A DNA stretch of 53,453 nt from Bacteroidales bacterium (GCA_003559475.1 PWLF01000193.1:1-53453); one strand, 5' to 3'; positions 1,195-41,200 are shown, counted from the stretch's first letter. Numbers and translations: made by a program. The notes: a model not told the origin generated them from the letters alone.

Positions 1195-3819
1195 TTGTCA
1201 AAAGGAGAAGAAAAAGAAGTTGCAACGCCTTTGATGCGCCAATATAACACCATAAAGGCAAAATATCCTGACTCGTTATTATTATTCAGGGTAGGAGATT
1301 TTTATGAAACTTTCGGCGAGGATGCTGTTAAAACATCACAAATTTTAGGAATAATATTGACAAAACGTGCTAATGGCGCTGCGTCCAGCGTTGAGTTAGC
1401 AGGGTTCCCTTATCATGCACTTGAATCATATTTGCCGAAGTTGGTAAAAGCAGGTCAACGTGTTGCAATATGTGATCAACTTGAAGACCCTAAGAAAGCG
1501 AAGAAAATTGTAAAAAGAGGTGTAACTGAGCTTGTAACTCCGGGAATAGCTTTTAATGACAGAGTGCTGGATGTGAAAGAGAATAATTTTTTAGCGGCTA
1601 TTCATTTTAGTGATAATAATTTAATTGGGATATCTTTTTTGGATGTTTCTACAGGTGAATTTCTATTAGAACAAGGCAACTTTGAATATATAGATAAGCT
1701 GATACAAAGTTTTAAGCCAAGTGAAATTGTTGTTCAGAAAAATAAGGTTAAAAAATTTCACGAAATATTTTCGGGGAAATTTTATACGACAACTCTTGAT
1801 GATTGGGCTTTTACAAAAGATTTTGCTGATGATATTCTTTTAAAACACTTTGATACTTTGTCTTTTAAAGGTTTTGGTGTTGAAGGTATTGATGAAGGAA
1901 TTATTTCTGCAGGAGCAATAATGCATTACTTGTCAGAAACTCACCATGACAAGCTTCATCATATTACAAAAATATCCCGTATAGATCAAGAGCAGTATGT
2001 ATGGCTGGATAAATTTACTATGAGAAATCTTGAGCTTCTTTATAGTCCAAATGAAGAGGCATCAACATTAATAAATGTTATTGATCATACAATATCTCCA
2101 ATGGGTAGCCGACTACTCAAACGTTGGACTGCAATGCCTTTGAAAGAAAAAACTTCAATTGAAGAGAGACATGACGTAGTAGAGTATTTGTTAAAAGATT
2201 ATGATTTATCAGAAAATCTTAGCAATTGGATAAAATCTATAGGTGATCTCGAAAGGCTTATTTCAAAAGTTGCAGTAAGAAAAATTAATCCTCGTGAAGT
2301 GCTTCAAATTAAAAAAGCTCTTGAATCTGTAGAGCCAATGAAAAAAGAGCTTGAAAAAACAGACAGCTATCCTCTGCAAAAAATATCGGAGCAGTTGAAT
2401 CCTTGTTCAATAATAAAAGACAGAATATCAAAAGAAATTAAAGAAGAACCTTCGGTTCTTATATCTAAAGGAAATGTTATAAATGATGGCGTTTCAGAAG
2501 AGCTTGATGAGCTTCGCTCAATACTTAATTCAGCAAAAGATTATTTGCTTGGTTTAAAACAAAGAGAACTAGAAAGAACAGGAATTCCATCATTAAAAAT
2601 TGCGCATAATAATGTTTTTGGTTATTATATCGAAGTTACTAATACGCATAAAAATAAAGTGCCTGAGGAATGGGAACGAAAGCAAACCCTTGTTAACGCC
2701 GAAAGATATATAACGCCGGAATTAAAAGAATACGAACATAAAATACTTGGTGCCGAAGAAAAAATATTAGTGCTGGAAGAAAAAATTTATACGGAGCTAT
2801 TACATGCACTTGAAGAATATATTCAACCAATTCAAATAAATGCTAATTTGGTTGCTAAACTTGATTGCTTGTTGTGCTTTGCGAATATTGCTAAGCAGTA
2901 CAACTATGTCAGACCTGAAATAAATGATAGTTATGTGATTGATATTAAAGAGGGACGACATCCGGTAATAGAACAAAGATTGCCGGTAGGAGAAGAATAT
3001 GTTGCCAATGATGTGTATTTGGATAATGAGACTCAGCAAATAATGATAATTACTGGTCCTAACATGTCAGGAAAGTCAGCTTTATTGCGACAGACTGCTT
3101 TGATAGTTTTGCTTTCACAAATGGGGAGTTTTGTTCCGGCTAAAAAGGCATCAATAGGTTTTGTTGATAAGATTTTTACCCGCGTTGGAGCATCCGATAA
3201 TATCTCTTCAGGAGAGTCCACTTTTATGGTGGAAATGAATGAAACAGCTTCAATTTTAAATAATATTTCCAACAGAAGTCTGATATTGCTTGATGAAATA
3301 GGCAGGGGAACAAGCACTTATGACGGCATAAGCATTGCATGGGCAATAGCAGAATATTTGCATGAACACCCGCTTTTCAAAGCTAAAACGCTTTTTGCTA
3401 CTCATTATCACGAATTAAATGAACTTGCAAGTTCATTTTCAAGAATAAAAAACTATAATGTAACAGTAAAAGAATTGCAAAATAAGGTCATATTTTTACG
3501 AAAATTAGCTAAAGGAGGAAGTGAACACTCATTTGGAATTCATGTTGCCCGTATGGCAGGAATTCCATCCATTGTTGTTGATAGAGCAAAATCTTTGCTG
3601 TCCGGTTTGGAAAAATCACATGCAAATGAAAATATATCAGGCTCTCCTAAGAAAAAAAATAATAAAAAAGAGGATTATCAATTAAGTTTTATACAACTTG
3701 ATGACCCTTTATTAGAACAAATTAAAGAGGATATTCTTAATACCGACATTGATACTCTTACACCTGTTGAAGCCCTTATGAAACTTAATGAGATAAAGAG
3801 ATTACTCGGGAAAAAGTAA
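1195..3819 (+). CDS. mutS: DNA mismatch repair protein MutS
   Basis: [15 protein letters not shown], Walker [23 protein letters not shown]; TTG start. Confidence 0.98.
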
Positions 3820-11714: not shown

Positions 11715-11997
11715 AAAATAAATATTTTTTAAAATCAGATCAAAGCAATATAGCCTAAAACTTCTACTTAGATAAAAAAAATATATATAAATAACGCTTT
11801 TAACAAATTTTAACTTTTCAATATAGGGTTTTAAAAAAAAAAATTGTTTTTATTTGCATAGTATTTTATATTTTATTGTTGATAAAATTATTTTTTAGTT
11901 CGTTTAAACAATTTAAAAGATTGATTTTTAATTATTTTAACTAATTGTTTTTTTAAAACTTTTTATTATCAATTTATTTTATTAAGTTCACTAAAAA

Positions 11998-12005
11998 AAG
12001 GAGGT
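11998..12005 (+). promoter_or_regulatory. Canonical Shine-Dalgarno sequence AAGGAGGT
   Basis: AAGGAGGT-ATAA-ATG before the 12010 ORF. Confidence 0.5.
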
Positions 12006-12009
12006 ATAA

Positions 12010-12549
12010 ATGAGACACAAGTTTACTAAAACATTTAATCTTAAGGGATTTAAATATTTAGGCATTTTTATAATAATGCTTTTTGCTTTTTCGGTTTCAA
12101 TAATTGTTTCAGCTCAGGAAGCTATACCGGCAACAGGCGGGGATGCTTCAGGTAGTGGTGGCTCAGTGAGTTATACTATTGGGCAAGTTTTTTATACAAC
12201 GTCAACCGGAACCGAAGGATCAGTTGCTCAAGGTGTACAACAACCTTATGAGATTTATGTTATTAGCTCAATTGAAGAAGTGTCGGAAATTGAACTAACT
12301 TTTTCTGCCTATCCTAATCCAACCAGAGATTTCTTACAGTTGGAAGTTGAATTAGAAAATCTTCAACTATTATCAGATGATAATATAAAATATCAGCTTT
12401 TTGATATGAATGGAAAGTTGATTAAATCTGACAAAGTTGAAGATAATCTTACGACTATTACCATGAATGAACTTAACCCCTCAACTTACTTTTTGAGGGT
12501 AATAAGTGGTAATAAGTATTTAAAAACATTTAGAATTATTAAAAATTAA
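12010..12549 (+). CDS. Small T9SS type A cargo protein
   Basis: Signal peptide ending VSA|Q; ~50-aa GGDASGSGGSVSYTIGQ domain; CTD with AYPNP...FDMNGK...YFLRV...RIIKN. Confidence 0.88.
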   Translation: MRHKFTKTFNLKGFKYLGIFIIMLFAFSVSIIVSAQEAIPATGGDASGSGGSVSYTIGQVFYTTSTGTEGSVAQGVQQPYEIYVISSIEEVSEIELTFSAYPNPTRDFLQLEVELENLQLLSDDNIKYQLFDMNGKLIKSDKVEDNLTTITMNELNPSTYFLRVISGNKYLKTFRIIKN

Positions 12550-12550
12550 T

Positions 12551-12609
12551 AGTTCAATTATTGTCAATATTTTTTACTGATTTTGATTCTTAGTAATATT
12601 GACAGAACT
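12551..12609. repeat. Imperfect intergenic hairpin
   Basis: TGTCAATATT (12562-12571) pairs with AATATTGACA (12595-12604); outer AGTTC/GAACT. Confidence 0.6.
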
Positions 12610-12679
12610 GAATTATTTATAAATTAATATGTTGAAGTTATTATATATTTAAATTTTTATAAATTAAAAACATAAAACT

Positions 12680-15600
12680 ATGAAAAGAAAAAATTACAAA
12701 CTAAAAAATTTACTGCTACTTACATTAGCAAATATGTTAATGATTACATCAATTATTTCACAAGCTCCCGCAAAAATGAGCTATCAGGCTGTGATTAGAG
12801 ATAATTCAGATAATCTTATTACTGAACAAGAGATTGGTGTGCAAATTAGTATTTTGCAAGGTTCTGAAGTTGGGACAGCAGTTTTTGTTGAAACTCATAC
12901 TGCTACAACTAATAAAAACGGTTTGGTGACTCTTATGATTGGTGATGGAACTGTTCAGCAAGGTGAACTAGAAAATATAGATTGGCAGGATGGTCCTTAT
13001 GTTATAAAAACAGAGACTGATGTTGACGGAGGAACTAATTATACTATTACAAGTTCAAGTATGTTGCAGAGTGTTCCTTATGCTATGCATTCAACAACAG
13101 CAGAAATCTTAACAGGTGAGATAACAGAAATAGATCCGCTTTTTAATGCAAGCCCTGCAGCTGATATCGAAACCACAGATATTGACAATTGGAATGAAGC
13201 TCATGGCTGGGGCGACCATTCAACAGAAGGGTACTTGACAGACTATGTTGTTACAGAAGAAGATGTTACTCAACATGAAGATGCTCTTAGTATTACTGAA
13301 AGCCAAATTTCTGATTTGCAAAATTATCTTACTTCGGACGATTATCAGGACTTACACCTTGATGATGGTACAGGTATTTTAACAATTACTCATTTAACAG
13401 ATCCAACAGAAATTAATCTTACTCCTTTTCTTGGTGAAAATACTGATAACCAGCAGTTATCTATTGATGGCAATGAGTTAAGTATTGAAAGAGGAAATAC
13501 TGTTACACTTCCTGATGAGACAGATCCTTTATTCACAGCATCGCCAGCTTCAGGAATAGAAACAGAGGATATTGATAATTGGGATGAAGCTCATGGCTGG
13601 GGTGACCACTCAACAGAAGGATATTTGACAGAATATGATGAGACAGATCCTTTATTCACAGCATCGCCTGCTTCAGGAATAGAAACAGAGGATATTGATA
13701 ACTGGGATGAAGCTCATGGTTGGGGCGATCATTCAACAGAAGGATATTTGACAGAATATGATGAGACGGATCCTTTATTCACGGCATCGCCTGCTTCAGG
13801 AATAGAAACAGAGGATATTGATAACTGGGATGAAGCTCATGGTTGGGGCGATCATTCAACAGAAGGATATTTGACAGAATATGATGAGACAGACCCTTTG
13901 TTCACAGCATCGCCTGCTTCAGGAATTGAAACAGAAGATATTGATGACTGGAATATGGCATACAGTTGGGGAGATCATTCAGCACAAGGATATATAACAG
14001 ATTATGTTGTTACAGAAGGAGATGTTACTCAACATGAAGCTGCTATTAACATAACAGAAAGTCAAATTACTGATTTGCAGGATTATTTATTGGATATAAC
14101 GGATGAAGATATAGATGATTTAAATAATGTGAATATTTTTGATATTGAACATGGAGAGATTCTTGTATATGACGAATCAGAGAGTGAGTGGATTAATGCT
14201 TTATTATCTGATAAAGAAACGGACCCTTTGTTTACTGCATGGGATAGGTCAGAAGGTATTGAGATAACTGAAAGTCAAATCACTGACTTAGAGGATTATT
14301 ATTTAGCTTCTAACCCACAAAACTATATTACCAATTTAGATGAAACTGATCCTGTATTTTCAGCATCACCTGCTGCCGGTATTGAAGCAGCTCATATTAG
14401 TATCTGGAATCTTGCTTACAGTTGGGGCGACCATTCAGAAGAAGGATATATAACAGATTATGTTGTTACAGAAGGAGATGTTACTCAACATGAAGCTGCT
14501 ATTAACATAACTGAAAGTCAAATCACCGACTTTGGAACTTATTATTTAGCTTCTAACCCTGCGGGATATATTTCAAATGCAGAAGAGACTGACCCTCTTT
14601 TTAGTGCATCTGCTGCAGCAGGAATTATAGCTGCTGATATAGATAACTGGAATGATGCTTATGATTGGGGAGATCATTCAGCAGAGGGATATCTTACCGG
14701 TTTTACCGAAGCTGACCCCACGTGGTCAGGAGCTCCCAATTTAGTTGGAAGTATTGGTAGAATGGGAGATGTTGGTATTGGAACCGATGACCCTCAAGCT
14801 AAACTGGAAGTAAGGGATAATGATGCTCTTATACATGGTATTACTGTTGGTAGAGGAAGTGGGGATGATGACAGGAATACTGTTTTTGGAAATCAAGCTT
14901 TGGCAGATAATACGTCAGGAAATAACATTGTTGCGATAGGTCTTAATGCACTTAATAGGAATATAGATGGTGATATGAATACTGCAATTGGAGCTAGTGC
15001 ATTAGCTTTAAATGAAACTTCCAATTATAATACAGCTGTTGGTTATGCTGCTTTATATTATAATGTTTCAGGTACAGGTAATAATACTGCTGTTGGTAAT
15101 CGTGCTTTGAAGTTTAATCTATCAGGATCTAATAATACAGCCGTTGGTTATCATGCTCTTAGAAATAGTCTTGGTTTTCAAAATGTTGCTATTGGAAGCT
15201 ATGCTATGGATGAAGGTACAGGTAATTATGCTACAGCCGTTGGCTATCAATCGCTTGAGCGAGTTTCGGGAGCTTATAATTCCGCTTTTGGACATCGTGC
15301 TCTTCAAAATACTACTTCAGGAGAACATAATACAGCCGCTGGTCACAGAGCTCTTGCAGATAATACTACCGGTCAAGGAAACACTTCAGTTGGCTATGCC
15401 TCCGGAGTAAATAACAATGATATGGTAAATACTACATTTGTTGGTAAATGGGCTTATGCAGTTGATGCAGCAGGGATATCTAATTCGGGTTCCTTCGGAT
15501 ATAACTCCAGGGTGAATGCCAGTAATCAATTAAGATTTGGAAATTCTTCTGTTAATGATATTGGAGGCCATGCCGCATGGTCAAATCTTTCTGATGAAAG

Positions 15601-16045
15601 GTTTAAAAATAATGTTAGAGATGATGTAGCCGGTCTTGATTTTATTATGAAATTACGCCCTGTAACATACAACTTGGATGCTCATAAGCTTGCAGGTTTT
15701 CTTCAGGAAGATAGAAAAATTGATGAAGATGGAAATGTTCTTTACGAAAAGAGTCAAGTTGATATAAAAGCTAGAGATGAAAAATCTGCTGTTACACAAA
15801 CAGGATTTATTGCTCAGCAAGTTGAGAAAGCTGCAAATGAGGCAGGTTTTGATTTTAGCGGTATTGTTAAGCCTGAAAATGAAAAAAGTCATTATAGCTT
15901 AAGATATTCTGAATTTGTTGTACCAATGGTTAAAGCTATGCAAGAACAGCAAGCTATAATTGAACAACAACAGCAACAAATTAATGACTTGCAAAGACAA
16001 GTTAATGAAATGAGGACAAATAGTCAATTTGAATCAAGTAACTAA
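12680..16045 (+). CDS. Secreted tail-fibre-like protein with C-terminal peptidase S74 intramolecular chaperone
   Basis: Signal peptide, then QAPAKMSYQAVIRD domain, ETDP repeats, NTAVG..AL beta-roll repeats, SDERFK autocleavage motif, GFIAQQV and a terminal coiled coil. Confidence 0.88.
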   Translation: MKRKNYKLKNLLLLTLANMLMITSIISQAPAKMSYQAVIRDNSDNLITEQEIGVQISILQGSEVGTAVFVETHTATTNKNGLVTLMIGDGTVQQGELENIDWQDGPYVIKTETDVDGGTNYTITSSSMLQSVPYAMHSTTAEILTGEITEIDPLFNASPAADIETTDIDNWNEAHGWGDHSTEGYLTDYVVTEEDVTQHEDALSITESQISDLQNYLTSDDYQDLHLDDGTGILTITHLTDPTEINLTPFLGENTDNQQLSIDGNELSIERGNTVTLPDETDPLFTASPASGIETEDIDNWDEAHGWGDHSTEGYLTEYDETDPLFTASPASGIETEDIDNWDEAHGWGDHSTEGYLTEYDETDPLFTASPASGIETEDIDNWDEAHGWGDHSTEGYLTEYDETDPLFTASPASGIETEDIDDWNMAYSWGDHSAQGYITDYVVTEGDVTQHEAAINITESQITDLQDYLLDITDEDIDDLNNVNIFDIEHGEILVYDESESEWINALLSDKETDPLFTAWDRSEGIEITESQITDLEDYYLASNPQNYITNLDETDPVFSASPAAGIEAAHISIWNLAYSWGDHSEEGYITDYVVTEGDVTQHEAAINITESQITDFGTYYLASNPAGYISNAEETDPLFSASAAAGIIAADIDNWNDAYDWGDHSAEGYLTGFTEADPTWSGAPNLVGSIGRMGDVGIGTDDPQAKLEVRDNDALIHGITVGRGSGDDDRNTVFGNQALADNTSGNNIVAIGLNALNRNIDGDMNTAIGASALALNETSNYNTAVGYAALYYNVSGTGNNTAVGNRALKFNLSGSNNTAVGYHALRNSLGFQNVAIGSYAMDEGTGNYATAVGYQSLERVSGAYNSAFGHRALQNTTSGEHNTAAGHRALADNTTGQGNTSVGYASGVNNNDMVNTTFVGKWAYAVDAAGISNSGSFGYNSRVNASNQLRFGNSSVNDIGGHAAWSNLSDERFKNNVRDDVAGLDFIMKLRPVTYNLDAHKLAGFLQEDRKIDEDGNVLYEKSQVDIKARDEKSAVTQTGFIAQQVEKAANEAGFDFSGIVKPENEKSHYSLRYSEFVVPMVKAMQEQQAIIEQQQQQINDLQRQVNEMRTNSQFESSN
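13514..13945 (+). repeat. 123-bp (41-aa) near-identical coding tandem repeat, ~3.5 copies
   Basis: Units start at 13514, 13637, 13760 and 13883 and encode DETDPLFTASPASGIETEDIDNWDEAHGWGDHSTEGYLTEY. Confidence 0.97.
13986..14523 (+). repeat. Dispersed ~80-bp direct repeat encoding GYITDYVVTEGDVTQHEAAINITESQI
   Basis: Near-identical copies start at 13986 and 14442; a diverged copy lies near 13230. Confidence 0.9.
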
Positions 16046-16093: not shown

Positions 16094-19000
16094 ATGAGAA
16101 GATTTAAAGTATTTTTATCCGTTTTTTTATTACTTTTTGCAATTAATGCACAATCTAATGATGAAGTAATAAAGTTAACTTTTAGTGCAACTTATGATGG
16201 AGAATGGACTCCTTTGGACAGGGTTTTACTGGAAAACTTGTCCCAAGGGGGAGAATATACCATTTTTTATCCCGATACAGTAATGGAATTGCCGACTCAT
16301 ACCGGTATTGGAGATATTCATGGAGAATATAAAAATCTGTATGTGTCGCAAAACTATCCAAACCCTTTCTCAAAAAAAACAAATATTAATGTGGGAGTGG
16401 TTGAGAAAGATGATTTTACAATTAATATTTATGACGTTGCAGGTAGAGAATTAGCAACTTATGAAGTAGAATTAGAACCGAATCTTCATAATTTCACATT
16501 TTATGCTTGTAGTGAGCAGATGTATATATTAACTGTAAAATCTAAAAAACACCTGGAAAAACAATTGATGATACAAACAGGTCCGGGTGGAGATAATTCA
16601 AAGATTGTTTATAACGGAACTGTCGCGAGAACAGAAAGCGGAGAACAATCATCAAAGACTTTCCCTTTCAAACCCGGAGATGTTTTAAGATTTACCGGAT
16701 ATAAAGGAGAGCAAAGTGAAGAGAAAGTTGACACACCAAATAAAGATACTGAATATACTTTTAAATTTAAGAGTTGTGAGCCTAATGCTCCTGTTGCAAA
16801 AGTTGCTTCAGATATTCAGGGTGATTCGTTTAAGGCAAACTGGAATTCTGTAACTGCTGACCCTGCTGTTACCAAGTATCTCCTTGATGTATCAGAGGAT
16901 GATGACTTTAGTACCTATATCTATGAACAAGAAGATGTTGGAAATAATACAGAATATACAGTTTCAGGATTGGATACTGAAACAGAATATTATTACAGAG
17001 TTTATGCTGTAAATAATTGCGGGGAATCAAAATCTTCAAATGTTATTTCTGTTATGACAACAACAGGATGTGTAAAGCCTGATGCTCCTGTTGCTACAGC
17101 CGCAACAAATATTGAAGGTCTTGAGTTTACGGCAAATTGGGATGCAGTAACTTCTGATCCTGCAGTTACTCATTATTTATTAGATGTTTCAGAAGATAGT
17201 GATTTTAGTACTTTTATTCTTGAAAAAGAGAATGTGGGTGATGTTACAGACTATGTCGTAACAGGACTAACTACTGATACTGAATATTTTTACAGAGTAT
17301 TTGCAGTAAATAGTTGTGGACAGTCAGATGCATCAAATGAAATTTCAGTTACGACTATATGTCCGCTACCTGATGCACCTGTTGCTACAGAAGCTACATA
17401 TGTTGATGAAACTGAGTTTACGGCAAATTGGGATGCAGTAATATCTCTTCCCGCTGTTACTCATTACTTATTGGATGTTTCAGAAGATAGTGATTTTAGT
17501 ACTTATGTGCTTGAAAAAGAAGACGTTGGTGATGTTACAGAGTATGAGTTAACAGACTTGGATGAAGAAACTCAGTATTTCTATAGAGTCTTTGCAGTTA
17601 ATGAATGTGGTCAGTCTGATGCATCAAATGTTATTGATGTTGAAACAGCAGTATGTCCTACTCCTGATGAAGCTCCTATTGCTGATCCGGCTACGGATGT
17701 TAATGCTGATCAGTTTAAAGCAAACTGGCAAGAAGTGACTTTTGACCCTGAAATAACAAGCTATCTTATAGATGTTTCAACAGAAAGTGATTTTAGTAGC
17801 TATATTTATGAAAAAGAAAATGTCGGAGATGTTACTGAATATATTGTAACAGGATTAGATGCAGGCACTGAGTATTTTTATAGAGTATATGCTTTTAATA
17901 TGTGTGGAGAGTCTGATCCGTCTAATGAGATATCAGTTACTACAACATGCCCTGTGCCATCTGCTGTAAATGTAAAAGATGCTTCAGATATCGGCGTAGA
18001 TGAGTTTAGAGCAAACTGGCTTGCTGTAACTTCAAGTCCTGAAGTAACTCATTACTTATTAGATGTTTCATTAGAAGAAGATTTTGGTTCTTATGTTTAT
18101 GAAAATGTAAATGTTGGAAATAATACAGAATATCTTGTTGACGGACTAGATGCCGGGACGGAGTATTATTACAGAGTTTTTGCTGTTAACTCTTGTGGAG
18201 TATCAGATCCTTCAAAAGGTGTTTCTGTTGAAACTGTATGTCCTGTTCCGGGACAGCCTGTTGCTACAGATGCTACAGATATAGAAAATGATAGATTTAC
18301 GGCAAACTGGGAAGATGTTACTGCAGACCCGGCTGTAACACACTATTTATTGGATGTTACTACTGATAGTGAATTTGATGTATATAACAGAATTAATGTA
18401 GGAGATAATACAGAATATGTTGTTGAAGGACTAGATATCGGGACTGATTATTTTTACAGGGTTTTTGCTGTAAATAGTTGCGGGACATCTAAACCTTCAA
18501 TAGTTGTTGATGTTACTACTTTATGTGATGTTGTGCCTGATGCTCCTGTTGCACAAGATGCTACGGACATCGGAGCTGTTTCTTTTGTGGCAAACTGGGA
18601 TGCTGTAGTTTCTGTACCGGAAGTAACCGGTTATAATTTAAGAGTTAGGGAAGTCAAAGGTGGTACACCAACTATAGTATTTAACCAAAATGTAGGAAAT
18701 GTTACAGAATATAAAGTTGGGGATTTAAACCCGGATACTGATTATATTTATATTGTTATAGCAATTAACCCATGTGGTACATCTGATATATCAAATGAAA
18801 TAGATGTAACTACTTTGTGTCCTGAGCCGGATGCTCCTACTGCCAATGAAGCCGGAAAAATCGAAGCTACTTCTTTTGTGGCAAACTGGGATGCTGTAGT
18901 TTCTGTACCGGAAGTAACCGATTATAATTTAGTAGTTGTAAAAAATCCTAATGGAGTTCCTACACAAGTATTTAATTCCGATGTAGGGGATGTTACACAA

Positions 19001-20047
19001 TATGAAGTTGAGGATTTAGAACCGGGTACTGAATATGGATATATTGTAAGAGCAATTAACTCATGTGGTAACTCTACTTTTTCAGACCCGGAAATACTTG
19101 TAACTACTTTATGCCCTACTCCTGATGAACCAACAGCTAACCCTGCTTCTAATATCGAGTATAACTCATTTGTGGCAAACTGGGATGCAGTAGTTTCTGA
19201 ACCGGAAGTAACCGATTATAATTTAAGAGTTATAGAAGACCCTAATGGGACTCCTAAACAAATATTTAATTCCAATGTAGGGAATGTTACAGAATATATA
19301 GTTGATGGTTTAGATCCGGATACTGAATATGCATATGTTGTAAGAGCAATTAATCCATGTGGTAACTCTTCTTTTTCAAACCCGGAGATATATGTAACTA
19401 CTTTGGAAGATCCTTGTAATGATCCCTCCAGTGGAGATATAACTTTTACTTATAATGGCGAGGAAGTCACTTATGGTATAGTTAGAAGCGGTAACAGATG
19501 CTGGCTTGATAGAAACCTGGGAGCTTCACAAGTTGCAACAGCAATAGATGATGAAGATGCTTACGGAGATCTTTTCCAGTGGGGTAGAGAAGATGATGGT
19601 CATCAAGAAAGAGATTCTGATGAGACCTCTACTTTAGCTGATTCTGACCAGCCCGGTCATGATGAATTTATTAAAGCTGTTGATCATCCTAATGATTGGC
19701 GTGAAGGTAATAATGATAACAGATGGAATGCTGATCCTATGGTTAATAACCCTTGCCCTCTTAGCTGGGCTGTTCCTAGTGTAGAAGATTGGAATTATGA
19801 AGTGGACAGGTGGAGCAGTAATGATAGTGAAGGTGCTTTTAATTCACCTCTTAAACTAACAGCCGGAGGTTATCGTGGGGTTTTAGGTTCTGTTTCAGGT
19901 GAAGGAACATCAGGGGCTTACTGGAGTAGCTCAGTTTTGTCAACAGCATCTAATCGTTTATATTTTGATGATGATAGCTCTAATACTAATTCACAACATC
20001 GTGTACGTGGTTCTTCAGTTCGTTGTATTATGGATAAAAAGAAATAA
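16094..20047 (+). CDS. Secreted protein with internal T9SS CTD-like domain, nine fibronectin type III repeats and C-terminal FISUMP-like domain
   Basis: Signal peptide; SQNYPNPF...IYDVAGRE near the N-terminus; nine F.ANW...YRV.A.N.CG.S units; C-terminal WLDRNLGA, GDLFQWGR, PCP..W.VP, YWSSS and SVRCI. Confidence 0.88.
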   Translation: MRRFKVFLSVFLLLFAINAQSNDEVIKLTFSATYDGEWTPLDRVLLENLSQGGEYTIFYPDTVMELPTHTGIGDIHGEYKNLYVSQNYPNPFSKKTNINVGVVEKDDFTINIYDVAGRELATYEVELEPNLHNFTFYACSEQMYILTVKSKKHLEKQLMIQTGPGGDNSKIVYNGTVARTESGEQSSKTFPFKPGDVLRFTGYKGEQSEEKVDTPNKDTEYTFKFKSCEPNAPVAKVASDIQGDSFKANWNSVTADPAVTKYLLDVSEDDDFSTYIYEQEDVGNNTEYTVSGLDTETEYYYRVYAVNNCGESKSSNVISVMTTTGCVKPDAPVATAATNIEGLEFTANWDAVTSDPAVTHYLLDVSEDSDFSTFILEKENVGDVTDYVVTGLTTDTEYFYRVFAVNSCGQSDASNEISVTTICPLPDAPVATEATYVDETEFTANWDAVISLPAVTHYLLDVSEDSDFSTYVLEKEDVGDVTEYELTDLDEETQYFYRVFAVNECGQSDASNVIDVETAVCPTPDEAPIADPATDVNADQFKANWQEVTFDPEITSYLIDVSTESDFSSYIYEKENVGDVTEYIVTGLDAGTEYFYRVYAFNMCGESDPSNEISVTTTCPVPSAVNVKDASDIGVDEFRANWLAVTSSPEVTHYLLDVSLEEDFGSYVYENVNVGNNTEYLVDGLDAGTEYYYRVFAVNSCGVSDPSKGVSVETVCPVPGQPVATDATDIENDRFTANWEDVTADPAVTHYLLDVTTDSEFDVYNRINVGDNTEYVVEGLDIGTDYFYRVFAVNSCGTSKPSIVVDVTTLCDVVPDAPVAQDATDIGAVSFVANWDAVVSVPEVTGYNLRVREVKGGTPTIVFNQNVGNVTEYKVGDLNPDTDYIYIVIAINPCGTSDISNEIDVTTLCPEPDAPTANEAGKIEATSFVANWDAVVSVPEVTDYNLVVVKNPNGVPTQVFNSDVGDVTQYEVEDLEPGTEYGYIVRAINSCGNSTFSDPEILVTTLCPTPDEPTANPASNIEYNSFVANWDAVVSEPEVTDYNLRVIEDPNGTPKQIFNSNVGNVTEYIVDGLDPDTEYAYVVRAINPCGNSSFSNPEIYVTTLEDPCNDPSSGDITFTYNGEEVTYGIVRSGNRCWLDRNLGASQVATAIDDEDAYGDLFQWGREDDGHQERDSDETSTLADSDQPGHDEFIKAVDHPNDWREGNNDNRWNADPMVNNPCPLSWAVPSVEDWNYEVDRWSSNDSEGAFNSPLKLTAGGYRGVLGSVSGEGTSGAYWSSSVLSTASNRLYFDDDSSNTNSQHRVRGSSVRCIMDKKK
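16775..19410 (+). repeat. Nine ~96-98-aa FN3 coding repeats
   Basis: Periodic GCAAAYTGG (ANW) motif; the last three units share long near-identical DNA stretches. Confidence 0.92.
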
Positions 20048-35248: not shown

Positions 35249-38200
35249 ATGCGATTATTTAAAAGTAAGCAAAAAAAATTTATTTTGGTTTTTTTTATAA
35301 AAGCTTTACTACTACTTTATAATACAGTTATATCCTCGCCTCCCCCACCTAATGTTGTAGAACAGACTATTCAGGTTTTTTGTGGAGAAAATGCTGAGTT
35401 TGAAATAGACAACCAGGACCCTGATTATATTTATTTTTGGTTTTCTGATTCCGAAGGAGAAGAACAGGTAGGATTAGGTGAAATTTTTGAAACTTCGGTT
35501 TTAACTTCAAATACAAGCTATTGGGTTGGAGCTGCTGAAGGAGAGATAATATCTGAAGAATTTACATTTACCAATTGTGATGCTACCGGTCGTTTTGGGC
35601 CTGATCAAAGTGCTGTAGATTCAGAATACAATGGGACTAATTTGGAAGGAGATGTTACGGTTATTGGAGATGGAATACAGGAATGGATTGTTCCAAAAAC
35701 AGCTACATATACTATTACTACTTATGGAGCAGGTGCAGGATATATAAACGAACAAAAAGGAGCAAAAATATCCGGCGAATTTGAATTAGAAGAGGGGGAT
35801 ACTTTAAGAATTTTAGTTGGACAAGTTGGCTTAGGAGGTGATACTGATGATGACGGTCGCTTTTGTGGTTCTGGGATGACAGCTGTTGCTAAATATCAAG
35901 AGAACGATGATGACATTCCTTTAATAGTAGCAGGAGGAGCCGGTGGAGTATCAGACGGAAGTATATCATCCCCTGTACAATCTTTTGGTATAGCAACAGA
36001 AACAGCAAATAGTGGAACTTCAGGAGGAAATCCTGATAATTCGGAAGGAACAGATGGTAATGCAGGTAGAAGCGGAAGTACAGGTACATGGGCACATCCG
36101 GGTTCAGGATTTTATGAGTCGGAAACAGTTGGTACTGATGGGGATAGATCTCAGTCATTTATTGATGGTGGTGTAGGTGCTTCCGGAGATAATAATGCCG
36201 AAGGAGGTTTTGGAGGAGGAGGAGTTGGAAGACATAATCAAAGAATAGGAGGAGGTGGCGGTTATTCCGGCGGTGGCTCGGGTGGAAACTCAAATAATGA
36301 TGTTGGAGGAGGTGGGGGCTCCTATAATTCAGGAAAAAATCAAACTAATAAATCGGGATACCATCAAGGAAATGGTTTAGTTGTTATTTCTTTAGAAGTT
36401 CCGGAAGTTGGAGAATTAAGTGATTTAACTCAAGTAGATGTGGAAATTGAAGAATTAAGTATTCCGGATGTTTCTGAATTAAACCCTGATATTTACTGTG
36501 GGACGTCAATAACTTTATCCGCCTCAGGAAGTTCTTCCAACTATGTATGGTATAACGATGAAGATGATATAGTTGGCACAGGAGAAAATTTTACTACTCC
36601 AAGTCTAACCGAAAATACTACTTATTATGTCGAAGCAGTTGATACTGAACCGGAAAATGTGGTTTTAGAGTTTACCAATTGTAAAGCAACAGGCAGAACA
36701 GGTCCTTCTCAAGCAGACTGTGATTTTGAATATTTGGGAACAAATCTTGAAGGAAAGGTTAATATAACCGGTTATGGAATTCAACAGTGGGTTGTTCCTT
36801 ATACTGCAACATATACTATTGAAGCTTATGGGGCTCAGGGAGGGTCCGGAATAAGAGGAGGTATTGGTGGAAAAGGAGCAAAAATGTCCGGCGAGTTTGA
36901 ACTTGAAAAAGGGCAAAAATTAGATATTTTAGTTGGTCAACAAGGTCGAGGGGGGTATTCAAATCAAGTAGGTGGTGGCGGTGGTACTTTTGTAGTTATG
37001 AGTAATGCTATTTATGAGGAAGATATTTTAATAATTGCCGGTGGTGGTGGGGGTTATGGTGTAGGAACAACTACTGTTAATCAGGATAAAGCGTATGGTT
37101 CGGTTGATGTCAATGCAAAAGATGGGGTTGGCGGAGAGTCCTGGGGTGCGGGAGGTGTTGATGGAAATGGTGGAGATGCTGCAGACTCAAGAGGTTCCGG
37201 TGGAGGAGGGTTTTTTAGTGATGGAGAAGATGGCTCCGGAAACGGTGGGAGGGGTGTTTCTTATATAAAAGGAGGACTAGGAGGGCATGGTAATACTGTT
37301 GATGGTGGATTTGGTGGTGGTGGAGCTACAGATGAAAATACCGGATGGGGTGCAGCTAGTGGTGGTGGTGGTTATACCGGTGGTGGTGGTGGATACTCTG
37401 ATAGTGAAGATGATGAAGCTGCCGGAGGAGGAGGTGGTTCATTTAACTCAGGAATAAATCAAAATAATGAAGAAGGTGTTAAAACCGGTCATGGATTAGT
37501 AGTTATATCTTACTCTGTTGAACCTCAATGTGCTTCAGATAGAGCCCCAATAAATATAACAGTAGAAGAAATAGATACACCGGAAATAGTTGACCCAAAT
37601 CCCATTATATCTTGTGGAGGTAAAGCCACATTATCTGCATCAGGTAGTACAGGAGAATATGTATGGTATAACGATGAAGATGAAATTGTCGGTATAGGAG
37701 AAAACTTTACTACTTCAATCCTGACAGAAAATACAACTTATTATGTTGCGGCTGTTAATAGCGAACCTGCGAATAGTATTTGGCGATTTACAAATTGTAG
37801 AAAAGAAGGAAGATTAGGTCCTACTCAAGAAGATGCAGATAATGAATATGAAGGAACTAACCTAGAGGGAGAAGTCACAATAATTGGTGATGGCATTCAA
37901 CAATGGACTGTTCCCAAAACAGCTACTTACACAATTGAAGCTTATGGTGCACAAGGAGGTGCAGGGACGAGAGGTGGTATTGGAGGTAAAGGAGCAAAAA
38001 TGTCAGGTGATTTTGAACTTCAAGAAGGCGAAGTTATTGAAATCCTTGTTGGTCAACAAGGTGACGGTGGATATTCTCAAGAAATAGCAGGAGGTGGTGG
38101 TTCTTTTGTAGTAATGGGAAATGCCAGTAATAAGTCAGATATTTTGATTATAGCAGGTGGTGGAGGTGGTTATGGTGTTGGAACAACTACTATTCATCAG

Positions 38201-41200
38201 GATGTAGCACATGCGACAATAAATGATAATGCAAAAAACGGAATTGGAGGTACCTCTTTGGGTATAGGAGGAGTTGATGGAGCCGGCGGCGGAGATGCTG
38301 AATCTAGAGGTTCAGGAGGTGGTGGATTTATAAGTGATGGTGCTGACGGTTCAGGAAATGGTGGTGGCGGTAAATCATTTTTAAATGGCGGACAAGGAGG
38401 AGTGGGTAACACTGTTGATGGTGGATTTGGTGGTGGTGGAGCTACAGATGAAAATACCGGATGGGGTGCTGCAAGTGGTGGCGGTGGTTATTCAGGAGGT
38501 GGTGGAGGATACTCTGATAGTGATGATAATGAAGCAGCCGGAGGTGGAGGTAGCTCATATAACTCTGGTGCTAATCAAAATAATCAAGCCGGTGTTAGAG
38601 AAGGGCATGGATTGGTTATTATATCCTCAATAGTTGAAAAAAAATGTGCTTCTGATAAAGTCCCCATAAATATTACAGTAGAAGAACTAATCTCTCCGGA
38701 TGTTACAGAATCAGATCCCATTATTTCTTGTGGTTCATCCATAACACTAAACGCTTCAGGAAGCACAAATAATTATGTATGGTTTAATGAGAATGATGAA
38801 ATAATAGGTTATGGTAATAGCTTTACTACTCCCAGACTTAAAAATGACACAATATATAAGGTTGCTGCTATTGATTTTCAAACTGAAGTAATAGAATATG
38901 AATTTACAAATTGTGGAGTAGAAGGTAGATTTGGTCCTTTTCAATCAAATGTTAATTCTGAGTATTCAGGAACAAACCTTGAAGGAAATGTGACCGTGGT
39001 TGGATACGGAATTCAGAAGTGGGAAGTTCCTTATTCAGCAACATACAATATTCAAGCTTATGGTGCACAAGGAGGTGTTGGCCCTAGAAGTGGAATAGGA
39101 GGTAAAGGAGCAAAAATATCAGGTTATTTTGATCTTGAAAAAGGTGATGTATTAGAAATCTTAGTTGGTCAAAAAGGAGGTGGTAGTGATATTGATACAT
39201 TAGAAATTGGCGGTGGAGGAGGATCTTTTGTAGTAATGGAAAATGCCAGCTCAGAAGCCGATATTTTAATTATAGCCGGAGGAGGTGGTGGTTATGGTGT
39301 AGGAACATCTACTAATCAACAAAATATAGCTCATGCTACAACAGAAAACAATGCAAAAGATGGTTTTGGCGGTAATTCATGGGGTACGGGAGGAGTTGAT
39401 GGAAGTGGTGGAAATGCTGCAAATTCAAGAGGTTCAGGAGGTGGAGGATTTTTTACTGATGGTGAAGATGGCTCGGGAAATGGAGGTAGAGGAAGATCTT
39501 ATCTAAATGGTGGTGTTGGCGGAAGAGGATATAGTCTAGATGGCGGCTTTGGTGGAGGAGGAGCTACAGATGAAGCTACATCATCCTTTGGTGCTGCCGG
39601 CGGTGGTGGCGGATACTCCGGTGGAGGTGGAGGATATTCTTCTAGTAGTTCTAACGAAGCTGCAGGAGGAGGAGGAGGTTCTTTTAACTCAGGTTTTAAT
39701 CAAAATAATGAAGAAGCATACATTGAAGATAGACATGGACGAGTTATCATATCTTATGAGAGAGAATTTTTATGCTTATCAGAAAAGGTGTCGATTAATA
39801 TCACTATTGATGATATGGAAAGCCCAAATATAAACGAAACAAACCCTGCTATCTCATGTGGAGGAATTACTACTTTAACTGCCTCGGGAAGTACAGGATA
39901 TTATCTGTGGTATGATGAAGTAAACGAAATAGTTGGGACAGAAGACAGTTTTAATACTCCTGTTCTTACAGAAAATACAGATTATCAGCTTGAAGCTATT
40001 GATATTGAAAGTGAAGAGATAGAGTATGTATTCACAAATTGCGGAGTTGAAGGAAGAACAGGTCCTTCTCAATTAGACTGTGATACTGAATATTCAGGGA
40101 CAAATATTGAATCAGAAGTTACAATAAATAGTGATGGCATTCAGGAATGGGAAATACCCGAAACAGGAGTATATACTTTTACTGCATACGGTGCAAGAGG
40201 TGGAGGAAAAGATATAAATGTGGGAAGGCATGGTTATGGAGCAATTATACAAGCTGATTTTGAATTAAATAAAGGAGATGAAATACTGATTTTAGTTGGA
40301 CAAAAAGGTTCTGATTATTCAGATGAAAATGGTAATGCAGGTGGTGGAGGAACTTTTATAGTAAAAGTTGACCCACAAGGAGATTATTTTATGGATGATA
40401 ATAGTTACTTGGGTTTAAAAGTTACACCATTGTTAGTTGCCGGAGGAGGTGGCGGAGCATTTAATGATAATCCTATTGCTGATAACGATGGTCAAACAGA
40501 TAGTTATAGTGAATATCTCGGAGAGTGGACTGATCAAGGTGGATTTCATTGGGGAGCTACAGGTTCCGGGGAAGGTGCCGGAGGTGGATTTTCCGGAACC
40601 GGCGAAGAAGATGGCTCTGAACCCACAGGAGGAGGGAGTTTCTTAAATGGATATAAAGGAGACAGAAATTACGGAATTGGTGGATATTATCTGGAAGAGT
40701 CTTCAGATTATGGAGGTTTTGGCGGTGGTGGCGGTTATGGTATATTTAATTACGGATCAGGAGGAGGAGGATTCAGAGGTGGTGATTTTTGTCCATACAA
40801 TAGTAACACATGTAAGAGTGGTGGAGGAAGTTATATTCATAAAAGTGCAATATCAGCCGCTACTTCAGACGGTAATTTTAATACTACTAATTCCGACGGC
40901 TTTGATGTCTATGATGGTCCTGTTGATAACTTGAATGAATATAATGAAGATGATCATGGAATGGTTATAGTAACTTATGCTATAGAACCTATATGTTTCT
41001 CTGATAGAGATTTCGTAACGGTAGAAGTAGAATTTGACTACTATCAAACACTATCTTCCGGAGATTGGGATAATGAAAGTACATGGGAGGAGTGTTGTAT
41101 GACAACATGCAACCCGGCTGAGTCATCTCCCTTATCTTTATTTGACAGAGATATCTCTATAAGAGACGGGCATGTGATTGATATTGATGGCGATTGGACA

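Follow-up and report, generated by a model that had tools for sequence, protein, structure and literature searches.

The window analysed here is a 53,453-nt stretch of Bacteroidales DNA, and two adjacent genes on its plus strand are the subject of this report. Gene S (12010..12549) encodes a small T9SS cargo of 179 aa, and gene F (12680..16045) encodes a MAT-like chimeric fibre of 1121 aa that is without a CTD. The first 35 residues of S (12010..12114) constitute an N-terminal Sec signal peptide by inspection, with a hydrophobic helix at residues 12–35 in the AF2 model and a conserved A/Q junction in the alignment, where the peptide ends (VSA/QEA). The head that follows (residues 36–85; 12115..12264) is rich in Gly, Ser and Thr (21 of 50 residues) and is modelled as four short strands (42–48, 51–57, 63–67 and 70–74; pLDDT 56–71). 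It matches no Pfam family, and neither the head nor the whole of S matches any PHROG family. Beyond a linker that is disordered in the model (79–90) comes the type-A CTD (residues ~96–179; 12295..12546), a sandwich in AF2 (96–178, pLDDT >90). It matches Por_Secre_tail (PF18962) at residues 101–172 of 179 (E 8.4e-11; 42.5 bits against a cut-off of 27) and TIGR04183 (42.2 bits against 23), the latter match extending to residue 179, so that the curated cut-offs of both families are exceeded at the extreme C terminus. The initial annotation had described some 50 mature Gly/Ser/Thr-rich residues before a T9SS CTD, and the coordinates, both family matches and the AF2 model bear this out. Relatives of the S head form 2630 clusters at 90% identity, nearly all of ~160 aa, and identity within the type-1 S family is ~70% over the head. 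At source these proteins are named only "hypothetical" or "T9SS type A sorting domain-containing protein". In rare long forms (P0124 and P0125) the head is still at the N terminus and the CTD at the C terminus, separated by a spacer that varies, as would suit a head displayed on a stalk that the CTD anchors.

Behind its Sec signal, F opens with an N-domain (residues 28–134; 12761..13081) that AF2 folds confidently, on its own, as a beta-sandwich (residues 31–133, pLDDT >93). The model thus gives no hint of a fold left incomplete for a strand from another protein, and does not favour the earlier suggestion that S might bind by strand complementation. The stalk (13513..14006) consists of 4.0 copies of a 123-bp (41-aa) unit with 92% matches between copies (Tandem Repeats Finder), and it aligns with the tail fiber family phrog_9729 at E 6.4e-111. 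A distal repeat region (residues ~660–960; 14657..15559) matches phrog_23837, phrog_6002 and phrog_4636 and shows an 18-aa periodicity (54 bp × 2.6 copies at 15023–15157); a PHROG tail-spike match spans residues 832–1114. This region, previously called a beta-roll, is probably a trimeric beta-helix. The remainder (15590..16045) is an S74 intramolecular chaperone/protease domain with a C-terminal coiled tail. Peptidase_S74 (PF13884) matches residues 971–1056 (E 2.1e-10; 41.2 bits against a gathering score of 22), and SDERFK at residue 971 is the sole instance in F of SDxxxK, described as the catalytic signature of S74 (PMC10769870); Ser971 is the predicted self-cleavage site. In Pfam and NCBIfam, F matched neither a CTD family nor an autotransporter-barrel family at E<=0.01, and together with the repeat searches these results agree with the architecture first proposed for gene 2 (Sec signal, N-domain, repeat stalk and S74, with neither CTD nor autotransporter barrel). 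F is probably a Sec-exported, trimeric fibre.

As in S74 phage tail fibres and spikes, the stalk repeats, distal repeat region and S74 domain of F all match phage families, and stalk and tip together match 115 phage records. The locus might on these grounds be taken for a prophage or tailocin remnant and F for a plain phage tail fibre gene, a possibility that we regard as extremely improbable. F differs from S74 phage fibres in that a Sec signal and a non-phage N-domain replace the tail or baseplate attachment domain, and in that it is chromosomal with housekeeping neighbours. By Pfam, the 10 flanking ORFs include MutS, a UvrA-like protein, AspRS, an ABC-F ATPase, a polysaccharide flippase, a GT4 glycosyltransferase and an Asn-synthase-like protein; three have no Pfam family, and none is phage-like, as had been noted at the outset. 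The F N-domain is found in 0 of 50,697 phage records and has no significant PHROG match, and two scans of phage collections with N-domain queries gave no confirmed match. Patterns derived from S yielded 0 confirmed matches among viral contigs and 568 among genome contigs. With no phage structural neighbours and an N-domain absent from the phage records searched, F was not assigned to the prophage or tailocin tail fibres. A new point is that the phage collections searched contain no F N-domain, while the rest of F is phage-like; S, like this N-domain, is cellular and non-phage.

Judged by sequence, the F N-domain is distantly related to the N-domain of the mosaic adhesive trimer (MAT) fibres of Bdellovibrio bacteriovorus, which include an S74 subfamily (Caulton et al. 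2024, PMC10769870); this too is a new point. The NCBI model for the MAT N-domain, NF053851, matches F at 45.5 bits (E 6.6e-12), significantly but under its cut-off of 60 and only over model positions 4–80 of 162, and F is hence a distant relative and not a member by NCBI's rule. All 50 members of the F N-domain alignment match the model, and in the window's own genome it matches at the seven F genes alone. The likeness extends to architecture: as described for the MAT fibres (PMC10769870), a conserved, beta-rich N-domain of ~130 aa comes immediately after the signal peptide and precedes a variable, phage-like stalk and tip, with S74 and non-S74 subfamilies, the SDxxxK motif, and many paralogues per genome with swapped tips. 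Two differences are that the host of F is a T9SS-bearing, Bacteroidota-type genome with no sign here of a predator, and that F has a dedicated small CTD gene upstream, whereas the parts of the MAT account on which we draw mention no such partner (PMC10769870). The F N-domain family is large, with 43,508 representative clusters (50% identity, E<=1e-3), and the N-domain of the window's F recurs in 132 of 133 F ORFs. The remainder of these ORFs is far from constant: their lengths range from 58 to 1125 aa (median 488), 18 of the 133 have an S74-like end and seven a FISUMP-like end, a pattern of constant N-domain and mosaic, exchangeable tips in S74 and non-S74 subfamilies that F has in common with the MAT fibres. 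The initial reading of F as a domesticated tail fibre needs correction. S is tied to the N-domain, a MAT-like and cellular module that the phage collections searched do not contain, and not to the phage-type S74 fibre, so that "MAT-like chimeric fibre" fits better.

The association of S with F extends well beyond the window. In an even sample of 301 genomes, F lies directly downstream of 23 of 26 full-length S genes, the other three loci being two S-x-F and one F-S. In 80 named genome contigs, 78 S genes are followed by 500 bp or more of sequence; F comes directly after 72 of them, and 71 of these 72 F matches have E<1e-15. The gap between the genes has a median of 8.5 bp and is at most 20 bp in 53 of the 72 pairs. 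Of the six exceptions, three have the arrangement S-x-F or S-S-F. The linkage spans Bacteroidales, Flavobacteriales, Chitinophagales and "Chlorobiota" MAGs. Whether the small CTD gene occurs together with the gene for the fibre N-domain had been set beforehand as a check on the initial annotation, which described the pair as recurrent in Bacteroidota; the frequencies found are far above chance. The S–F pair is widespread, tightly linked and very common in Bacteroidota, and our literature search found no description of it.

Three of the four S genes in the window's own genome precede an F gene; an S paralogue there (C220) is followed by FISUMP lipoproteins and not by F. The paralogue could be cited in favour of S and F being functionally independent and merely co-transcribed, with S, for example, a small secreted peptide with a role of its own. 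This we consider very unlikely, as linkage at the rates given above, with gaps of a few bases and across many families, is not easily accounted for unless the two share a function. S and F also diverge together, with a correlation of 0.78–0.80 between their distance matrices.

It is the N-domain of F, and not the S74 tip seen in only 18 of 133 F ORFs, that S accompanies, a point that had not been made before. The S head follows the F N-domain with a Spearman correlation of 0.78, against 0.80 for the S CTD, and within genomes the values are 0.49 and 0.76 (16 comparisons). As the head tracks the N-domain no better than the CTD does, it carries no specific co-evolution signal. This would fit an S that is an accessory, neither carrier nor anchor, such as a factor for assembly or quality control, a protein that caps or regulates the N-domain, or an independently secreted minor subunit, with F crossing the outer membrane by some other route. 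Tight operon linkage suits any obligate functional partnership, this one included, and phage fibres often depend for assembly on small, dedicated proteins whose genes lie alongside their own. A periplasmic assembly factor has no evident use for a T9SS export tag, however, and S lies upstream of F, whereas phage fibre chaperones are usually encoded downstream. The lack of PHROG matches to S or its head also speaks against such a role, which we judge unlikely.

We find that the S–F pair is best explained as a conserved two-gene surface-fibre module. F would be a Sec-exported fibre of the MAT kind, in which the N-domain is constant and lies nearest the cell and the stalk and tip, derived from phage, can be exchanged; the tip of the window's F would be of the S74-chaperoned type, with self-cleavage predicted at Ser971. 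S may be an adaptor or anchor, delivered by the T9SS, that keeps hold of the base of the fibre, a reading that we favour tentatively, at slightly short of an even chance. For this reading we infer co-translation of S and F, binding between them, export, a route for F across the outer membrane and attachment at the surface. The 50-residue S head would bind the F N-domain, the type-A CTD would carry S through the SprA translocon, and S, PorU-processed or still PorV-held, would fasten the base of the fibre to the cell's outer surface, the variable tip of F thereby pointing outward. The simplest option for F would be to cross the outer membrane riding with S through the T9SS. A CTD provided in trans at the N-terminal end would, by our reasoning, solve two problems: one placed at the C terminus of F would be lost with the S74 chaperone upon cleavage, and C-terminal anchoring would set the fibre upside-down. 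The host genome has both translocon and sortase, with SprA (TIGR04189, 2653 bits) and PorU (NF033707, 1266 bits) above their cut-offs.

A carrier/anchor role for S had been put forward from the outset, and it draws support from the gene linkage and from the presence of SprA and PorU, but S is not universal for F. When divergent S types missed by the first search are included, an S-like gene lies directly upstream of 66 of 99 F genes, while 30 of the 99 have no S in the operon. In one genome (G167) all 10 F genes listed are without S, and for five genomes including this one no full-length S-like match was found among the 150 matches listed (a further 379 exist). F is thus often found alone, and S is not a universal requirement for the F N-domain. 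To our knowledge, Bdellovibrio has no T9SS. If so, the MAT fibres on its cell surface (PMC10769870) indicate that this N-domain can work without a CTD partner. S might then be a carrier only, escorting F through the T9SS and afterwards being released or degraded, with the F N-domain binding an envelope component such as LPS or an outer-membrane protein. The same N-domain family has been proposed to bind a surface element in Bdellovibrio (PMC10769870), and the F genes that lack S, as well as S-F-F operons, in which two F genes share a single S (L021, L028 and L034), are compatible with such a role. It would leave unexplained how F without S is exported in T9SS-bearing genomes such as G167, which has hundreds of CTD candidates, and we think it quite unlikely. 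A further proposal, that the fibre acts as a phage decoy, gains nothing from PADLOC, which returned no matches.

Among known systems, S shares with type-A T9SS cargo, which are PorU-processed and PorV-carried, a signal peptide, a C-terminal type-A CTD and a genome with SprA and PorU; it departs from them in having a passenger of only ~50 residues that itself contains neither an enzymatic nor an adhesin domain, and in having a CTD-less gene as its partner in nearly every case. Mfa5 of the Porphyromonas gingivalis type V fimbriae offers a precedent for a subunit with a CTD among CTD-less partners in a filament: it is T9SS-targeted and joins the surface filament, while the other subunits, as described, lack a CTD and reach the filament by another route (PMC7835359). 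Mfa5 is large, contains a von Willebrand factor domain and occupies the tip, and the lipoproteins that are its partners assemble through strand exchange (PMC7835359), whereas S is a very small protein that would lie at the base of its fibre, with a phage-like trimer as partner. F has a long, repeat-rich and probably trimeric fibre with Asn/Gly/Ala-rich repeats, in which we take it to resemble the YadA-type trimeric autotransporter adhesins. It was not placed in that class, as it has no YadA-type barrel at E<=0.01 (Pfam/NCBIfam) and ends in S74; its polarity is also reversed, the conserved and presumably cell-proximal end being N-terminal. Export of one protein by means of another is known from Tat hitchhikers, where a signal-less partner is exported bound to a signal-bearing subunit (PMC4273604), and the T2SS exports folded complexes (PMC9251779). 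Our literature search found no T9SS equivalent of this principle and no description of T9SS carriage of a CTD-less partner; folded proteins are, however, reported to be moved by the T9SS (PMC9251779). That the T9SS exports and displays a CTD-less, folded trimeric fibre by way of a mini-adaptor supplying the CTD in trans, at the N-terminal end, is a possibility that we hold to be somewhat unlikely.

If this in-trans mode is real, it would be added to those of the T9SS as a new form of substrate recruitment, one that would concern tens of thousands of proteins. An adaptor role for S would explain how tip-out, C-terminally processed fibres can exist in Bacteroidota, whose T9SS recognises and anchors C termini. 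The S head and the MAT-type N-domain would, if the proposal is true, constitute the long-sought base attachment of MAT-like fibres, and S is a concrete candidate for the holder of the MAT N-domain, a question left by the Bdellovibrio work as described (PMC10769870). Given their exchangeable tips (S74-type helices, FISUMP and others), these modules likely determine what the bacteria stick to, and the S–F pair may show how such fibres are fixed to the cell.

Gene 3 (16094..20047, plus strand) begins 48 bp downstream of F and is possibly in the same operon, which does not imply that it belongs to the S–F module. Its product has a signal, an N-segment, a CTD-like domain at residues 88–159, Fn3 repeats (nine matched stretches) and a FISUMP tip. 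With a CTD-like domain near the N terminus, proteins of this type may be an in-cis counterpart of the S–F arrangement.

The small type IX secretion system (T9SS) cargo gene S (window 12010-12549, + strand, 179 aa) and the long fibre gene F (12680-16045, + strand, 1121 aa) have the domain layout first described for them. S ends in a type-A T9SS C-terminal domain (CTD) that scores above both curated cut-offs (PF18962, 42.5 bits versus 27; TIGR04183, 42.2 versus 23). Its AlphaFold2 model, built on an alignment of 59 sequences, places a signal helix (residues 12-35) before four short head strands of moderate pLDDT (residues 42-74, 56-71), a disordered linker (residues 79-90) and a confidently predicted CTD sandwich (residues 96-178). 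F begins with a hydrophobic leader that runs up to an A/S-Q junction; then come a beta-sandwich N-domain modeled with confidence (residues 31-133, pLDDT >93), a repeat stalk (13513-14006; 4.0 copies of a 41-aa, 123-bp unit), a distal repeat region and a Peptidase_S74 (S74) domain (residues 971-1056; 41.2 bits versus a cut-off of 22), which starts exactly at SDERFK (residue 971), the sole SDxxxK motif in the protein. CTD families and autotransporter-anchor families are absent from F in Pfam and NCBIfam. Upstream, a strong Shine-Dalgarno-like AAAGGAGGT (window 11994-12009) adjoins the start codon of S and is preceded by a 295-bp AT-rich spacer; to our knowledge, Bacteroidota mostly lack Shine-Dalgarno sites, and a strong one here is unusual. 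A promoter and terminator scan gave counts no different from shuffled expectation.

The S-F pair recurs, as the initial annotation had stated, and a co-occurrence count shows how regularly. An even draw of 301 genomes across the phylum yielded 26 full-length S genes outside the genome that contains the window (the own genome, GCA_003559475.1). In 23 of these cases an F N-domain gene starts immediately after S, in the same orientation; of the remaining three, two are separated from F by another gene (S-x-F) and one is in the order F-S. An independent sample of 80 named contigs, the best 80 of 568 relatives confirmed by S patterns, contains 84 S genes. For 78 of these the contig continues for at least 500 bp past S, and F follows directly in 72 of the 78. 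The gap has a median of 8.5 bp and is 20 bp or less in 53 of the 72. The six exceptions comprise one S-x-F, two S-S-F, one S without F, one spurious S call and one S with a recombinase-like gene after it, the last called by eye from N-terminal sequence. The contigs are labeled Bacteroidales, Lentimicrobiaceae, Prolixibacteraceae, Marinilabiliaceae, Rikenellaceae, Paludibacteraceae, Chitinophagaceae, Saprospiraceae, Flavobacteri- and "Chlorobiota", and relatives of Flavobacterium, Draconibacterium and Maribellus are represented in the set. One F-like match, on own-genome contig C208, proved to be an unrelated membrane protein aligned through signal-peptide columns, and the strength of the adjacent F matches was therefore re-checked: 71 of the 72 lie at E<1e-15.

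The count was also made from F. Upstream of all 99 F matches (E<=6.8e-22, own genome excluded), an S-like gene with head and CTD lies directly adjacent in 66, many of them divergent types below the reach of the initial S search (E<=1e-12); three further F genes are the second in an S-F-F operon, and 30 have no S. The own genome has four S and seven F genes; three S precede an F, and four F lack an upstream S.

Several variants of the arrangement were seen. S-x-F occurs at L037 and L038 (loci in sampled genomes G215 and G103), with an intervening gene of 227-239 aa and unknown type, and at L092, with an inserted 114-aa gene. S-S-F occurs at L094 and L133, where the two head types differ, and S-F-F, with two fibres to one S, at L021, L028 and L034. 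At the Flavobacterium-labeled L094 (5359-6735, + strand), an extra small domain precedes the F N-domain, which begins at residue 90, and the S gene ahead of F (256 aa) has an additional domain separating head from CTD. One own-genome S paralogue (C220, 4119-4616, - strand) is followed by two FISUMP-ended lipoprotein-like genes (2180-3760 and 504-2135, - strand) and by no F. Two contigs with typical S-F pairs are filed under a Thermoplasmata archaeon MAG (L058) and a Sulfuricurvum MAG (L108); in all likelihood both come from Bacteroidota and were binned wrongly.

Judged by sequence, S is a stand-alone mini-protein: its head matches 2,630 clusters of ~160 aa versus five longer proteins. In two of the five (P0124 and P0125) the head is N-terminal and the CTD C-terminal, with spacer domains between; on inspection, P0121 resembles a gene-call fusion, and P0122 a chimera that joins S to a FISUMP-type tail. 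No "Rosetta stone" fusion of S to F was found among these five. The head (residues 36-85) is 21/50 Gly, Ser or Thr, and as an ESM Atlas query it returned just short unnamed Bacteroidota clusters, all with scores <0.9. A pattern-limited scan of 2.9 million viral contigs with the S patterns confirmed no relative; the genome contigs gave the 568 confirmed relatives.

F, in turn, appears from its matches to be a chimera whose N-domain is of non-phage origin. Residues 151-1121 match PHROG tail-fibre and tail-spike families (phrog_9729, E 6.4e-111; phrog_4636, E 2.5e-57) and have matches in 115 of 50,697 phage records. None of the 50,697 records matches residues 28-150, no PHROG does so significantly, and two pattern-limited scans of viral contigs confirmed no N-domain. 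F ORFs (n = 133, median length 488 aa) have S74-like ends in just 18 cases and FISUMP-like ends, as in the neighboring gene 3, in seven, so that the phage-type S74 fibre of the window represents a single tip variant within a mosaic family. BLASTP finds the N-domain of the window's F in 132 of the 133, and it is evidently this N-domain, not the S74 tip, that S accompanies. That the whole locus is a prophage remnant is very improbable, as 0/10 flanking ORFs are phage-like, in agreement with the initial annotation; these ten are housekeeping or polysaccharide-synthesis genes. PADLOC returned no matches.

In carrying mosaic tips on a shared N-domain, the F family resembles the mosaic adhesive trimer (MAT) fibres displayed by Bdellovibrio (PMC10769870). 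NF053851, the NCBIfam model of the MAT fibre N-domain, matches the F N-domain significantly yet below its curated cut-off (E 6.6e-12; 45.5 bits versus 60; model positions 4-80 of 162). It is matched by 50/50 members of the F N-domain alignment and, in the own genome, by exactly the seven F paralogues and no other gene. The N-domain model, searched against the PDB with Foldseek, brought up generic Ig-like sandwiches but no match at E<=0.001, and phmmer with full F and with its last 221 residues gave no meaningful match to PDB sequences. With the N-domain as a profile, 43,508 representative clusters match at E<=1e-3, of which 17,879 also reach E<=1e-30. The 150 best profile matches are proteins of 168 to 2436 aa, and in 148 of them the best match begins no later than residue 25; the other two contain more than one matched stretch.

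We tentatively propose, at somewhat short of an even chance, that S uses its head to bind the F N-domain while SprA and PorV route S outward via its CTD, and that S then anchors the fibre base onto the cell surface. Apart from its T9SS address, S has no recognizable function, and its small, conserved head is N-terminal throughout. The gene nearly always lies a few bases ahead of F, a Sec-exported protein; the conserved end of F is likewise N-terminal and its C-terminus is the variable end. SprA and the PorU sortase are encoded in the own genome. The F C-terminus would be the functional end, self-cleaved in S74 types, and having S provide the CTD in trans, at the fibre's N-terminal end, would sidestep two conflicts: a CTD at the C-terminus of F would be lost when the S74 chaperone is cleaved off, and a fibre anchored by its C-terminus would be inverted. 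The simplest route would have F ride along bound to S, since folded proteins are T9SS substrates (PMC9251779). A precedent is Mfa5, which bears a CTD and becomes part of a filament although the remaining subunits of that filament take another route (PMC7835359). The alternative that S serves as a carrier only, with no part in anchoring, we regard as unlikely. The initial annotation had suggested that S might bind the F N-domain by strand complementation; this is not suggested by the structure model, because the N-domain is predicted to be a complete fold by itself.

Across 106 S-F pairs, distance matrices correlate for head and F N-domain (Spearman 0.78), for CTD and F N-domain (0.80) and for head and CTD (0.85). 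With the CTD controlled for, head and F N-domain keep a partial correlation of 0.32, a value reached by 0/500 permutations; the within-genome version (16 comparisons; head 0.49, CTD 0.76) does not discriminate. S and F are thus inherited together, for which shared phylogeny alone could suffice; the head is tied to F no closer than the CTD is, and is not indicated as the contact. A 1:1 complex prediction with F residues 28-160 and S residues 36-100 scored 0.29 against a mark of 0.32, with no folded controls, and counts neither for nor against binding. That S and F are independent proteins, merely co-transcribed, is improbable in our estimate.

Against the adaptor model, one third of F genes have no S, and some whole genomes have none. 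Bdellovibrio, too, displays MAT fibres and is not known to have a T9SS, which again counts against it. In the 6-Mb genome G167, none of ten F genes, which fall within the 30 of 99, has an upstream S (loci L046, at G167:C1:5335000-5351000, L170, L173, L174, L180 and L186). Five of the ten form a tandem array and all five are of the S74 type; CTD candidates in this genome number in the hundreds. In a dedicated search of five genomes including G167, no full-length S-like match stood among the 150 matches listed; 379 more lay beyond the listing. An accessory or assembly role for S is a minority possibility, a little likelier than that of a carrier only. Synteny of another kind is seen at L165, L182 and L187 (G103, G107 and G087; family f13), where the S-less F lies 110-197 bp downstream of a conserved, unrelated, Cys-rich gene of ~190 aa.

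Neither MAT fibres nor T9SS cargo are new as such. Literature searches on MAT fibres in Bdellovibrio, on T9SS with tail fibres and on T9SS with Peptidase_S74 returned no description of a conserved operon of a minimal CTD protein and a MAT-like fibre in Bacteroidota and no experimental or expression data on it, and a search on hitchhiker and piggyback export listed no T9SS case. That the pair represents both a new mode of T9SS recruitment in trans and, with it, the anchor still missing for MAT-like fibres is a realistic if minority prospect.

Gene 3, which begins 48 bp downstream of F (window 16094-20047, + strand) and has a FISUMP tip, contains a CTD-like domain near its N-terminus (residues 88-159 of 1317; Pfam, 29.7 bits versus 27). 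Eight own-genome paralogues including gene 3 (the others at C78 14734-16764; C62 5783-7906 and 2380-5736; C111 16951-19290; C60 9079-15600; C232 805-2454; C223 7265-9517) share a signal, a ~45-aa conserved segment, a CTD-like domain at ~65-160 and a long variable part. Among 67 own-genome CTD-like matches, 58 are C-terminal and these eight N-terminal. Five of the eight have a C-terminus of the ..S[V/I]RC[V/I].. type, resembling in its last residues the FISUMP end of gene 3, the one member covered by the family scan. The layout resembles S plus fibre joined in cis. The N-terminal module is rare elsewhere (three proteins in a near-length homologue search), and the C78 paralogue lies directly upstream of an S-less F. 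Farther along the window, a 2429-aa ORF (35249-42538, + strand) with a C-terminal T9SS CTD match (42287-42535) is a putative giant T9SS cargo, and its region has strong GC skew and the window's highest G+C (0.39-0.42 versus about 0.31-0.35 elsewhere).
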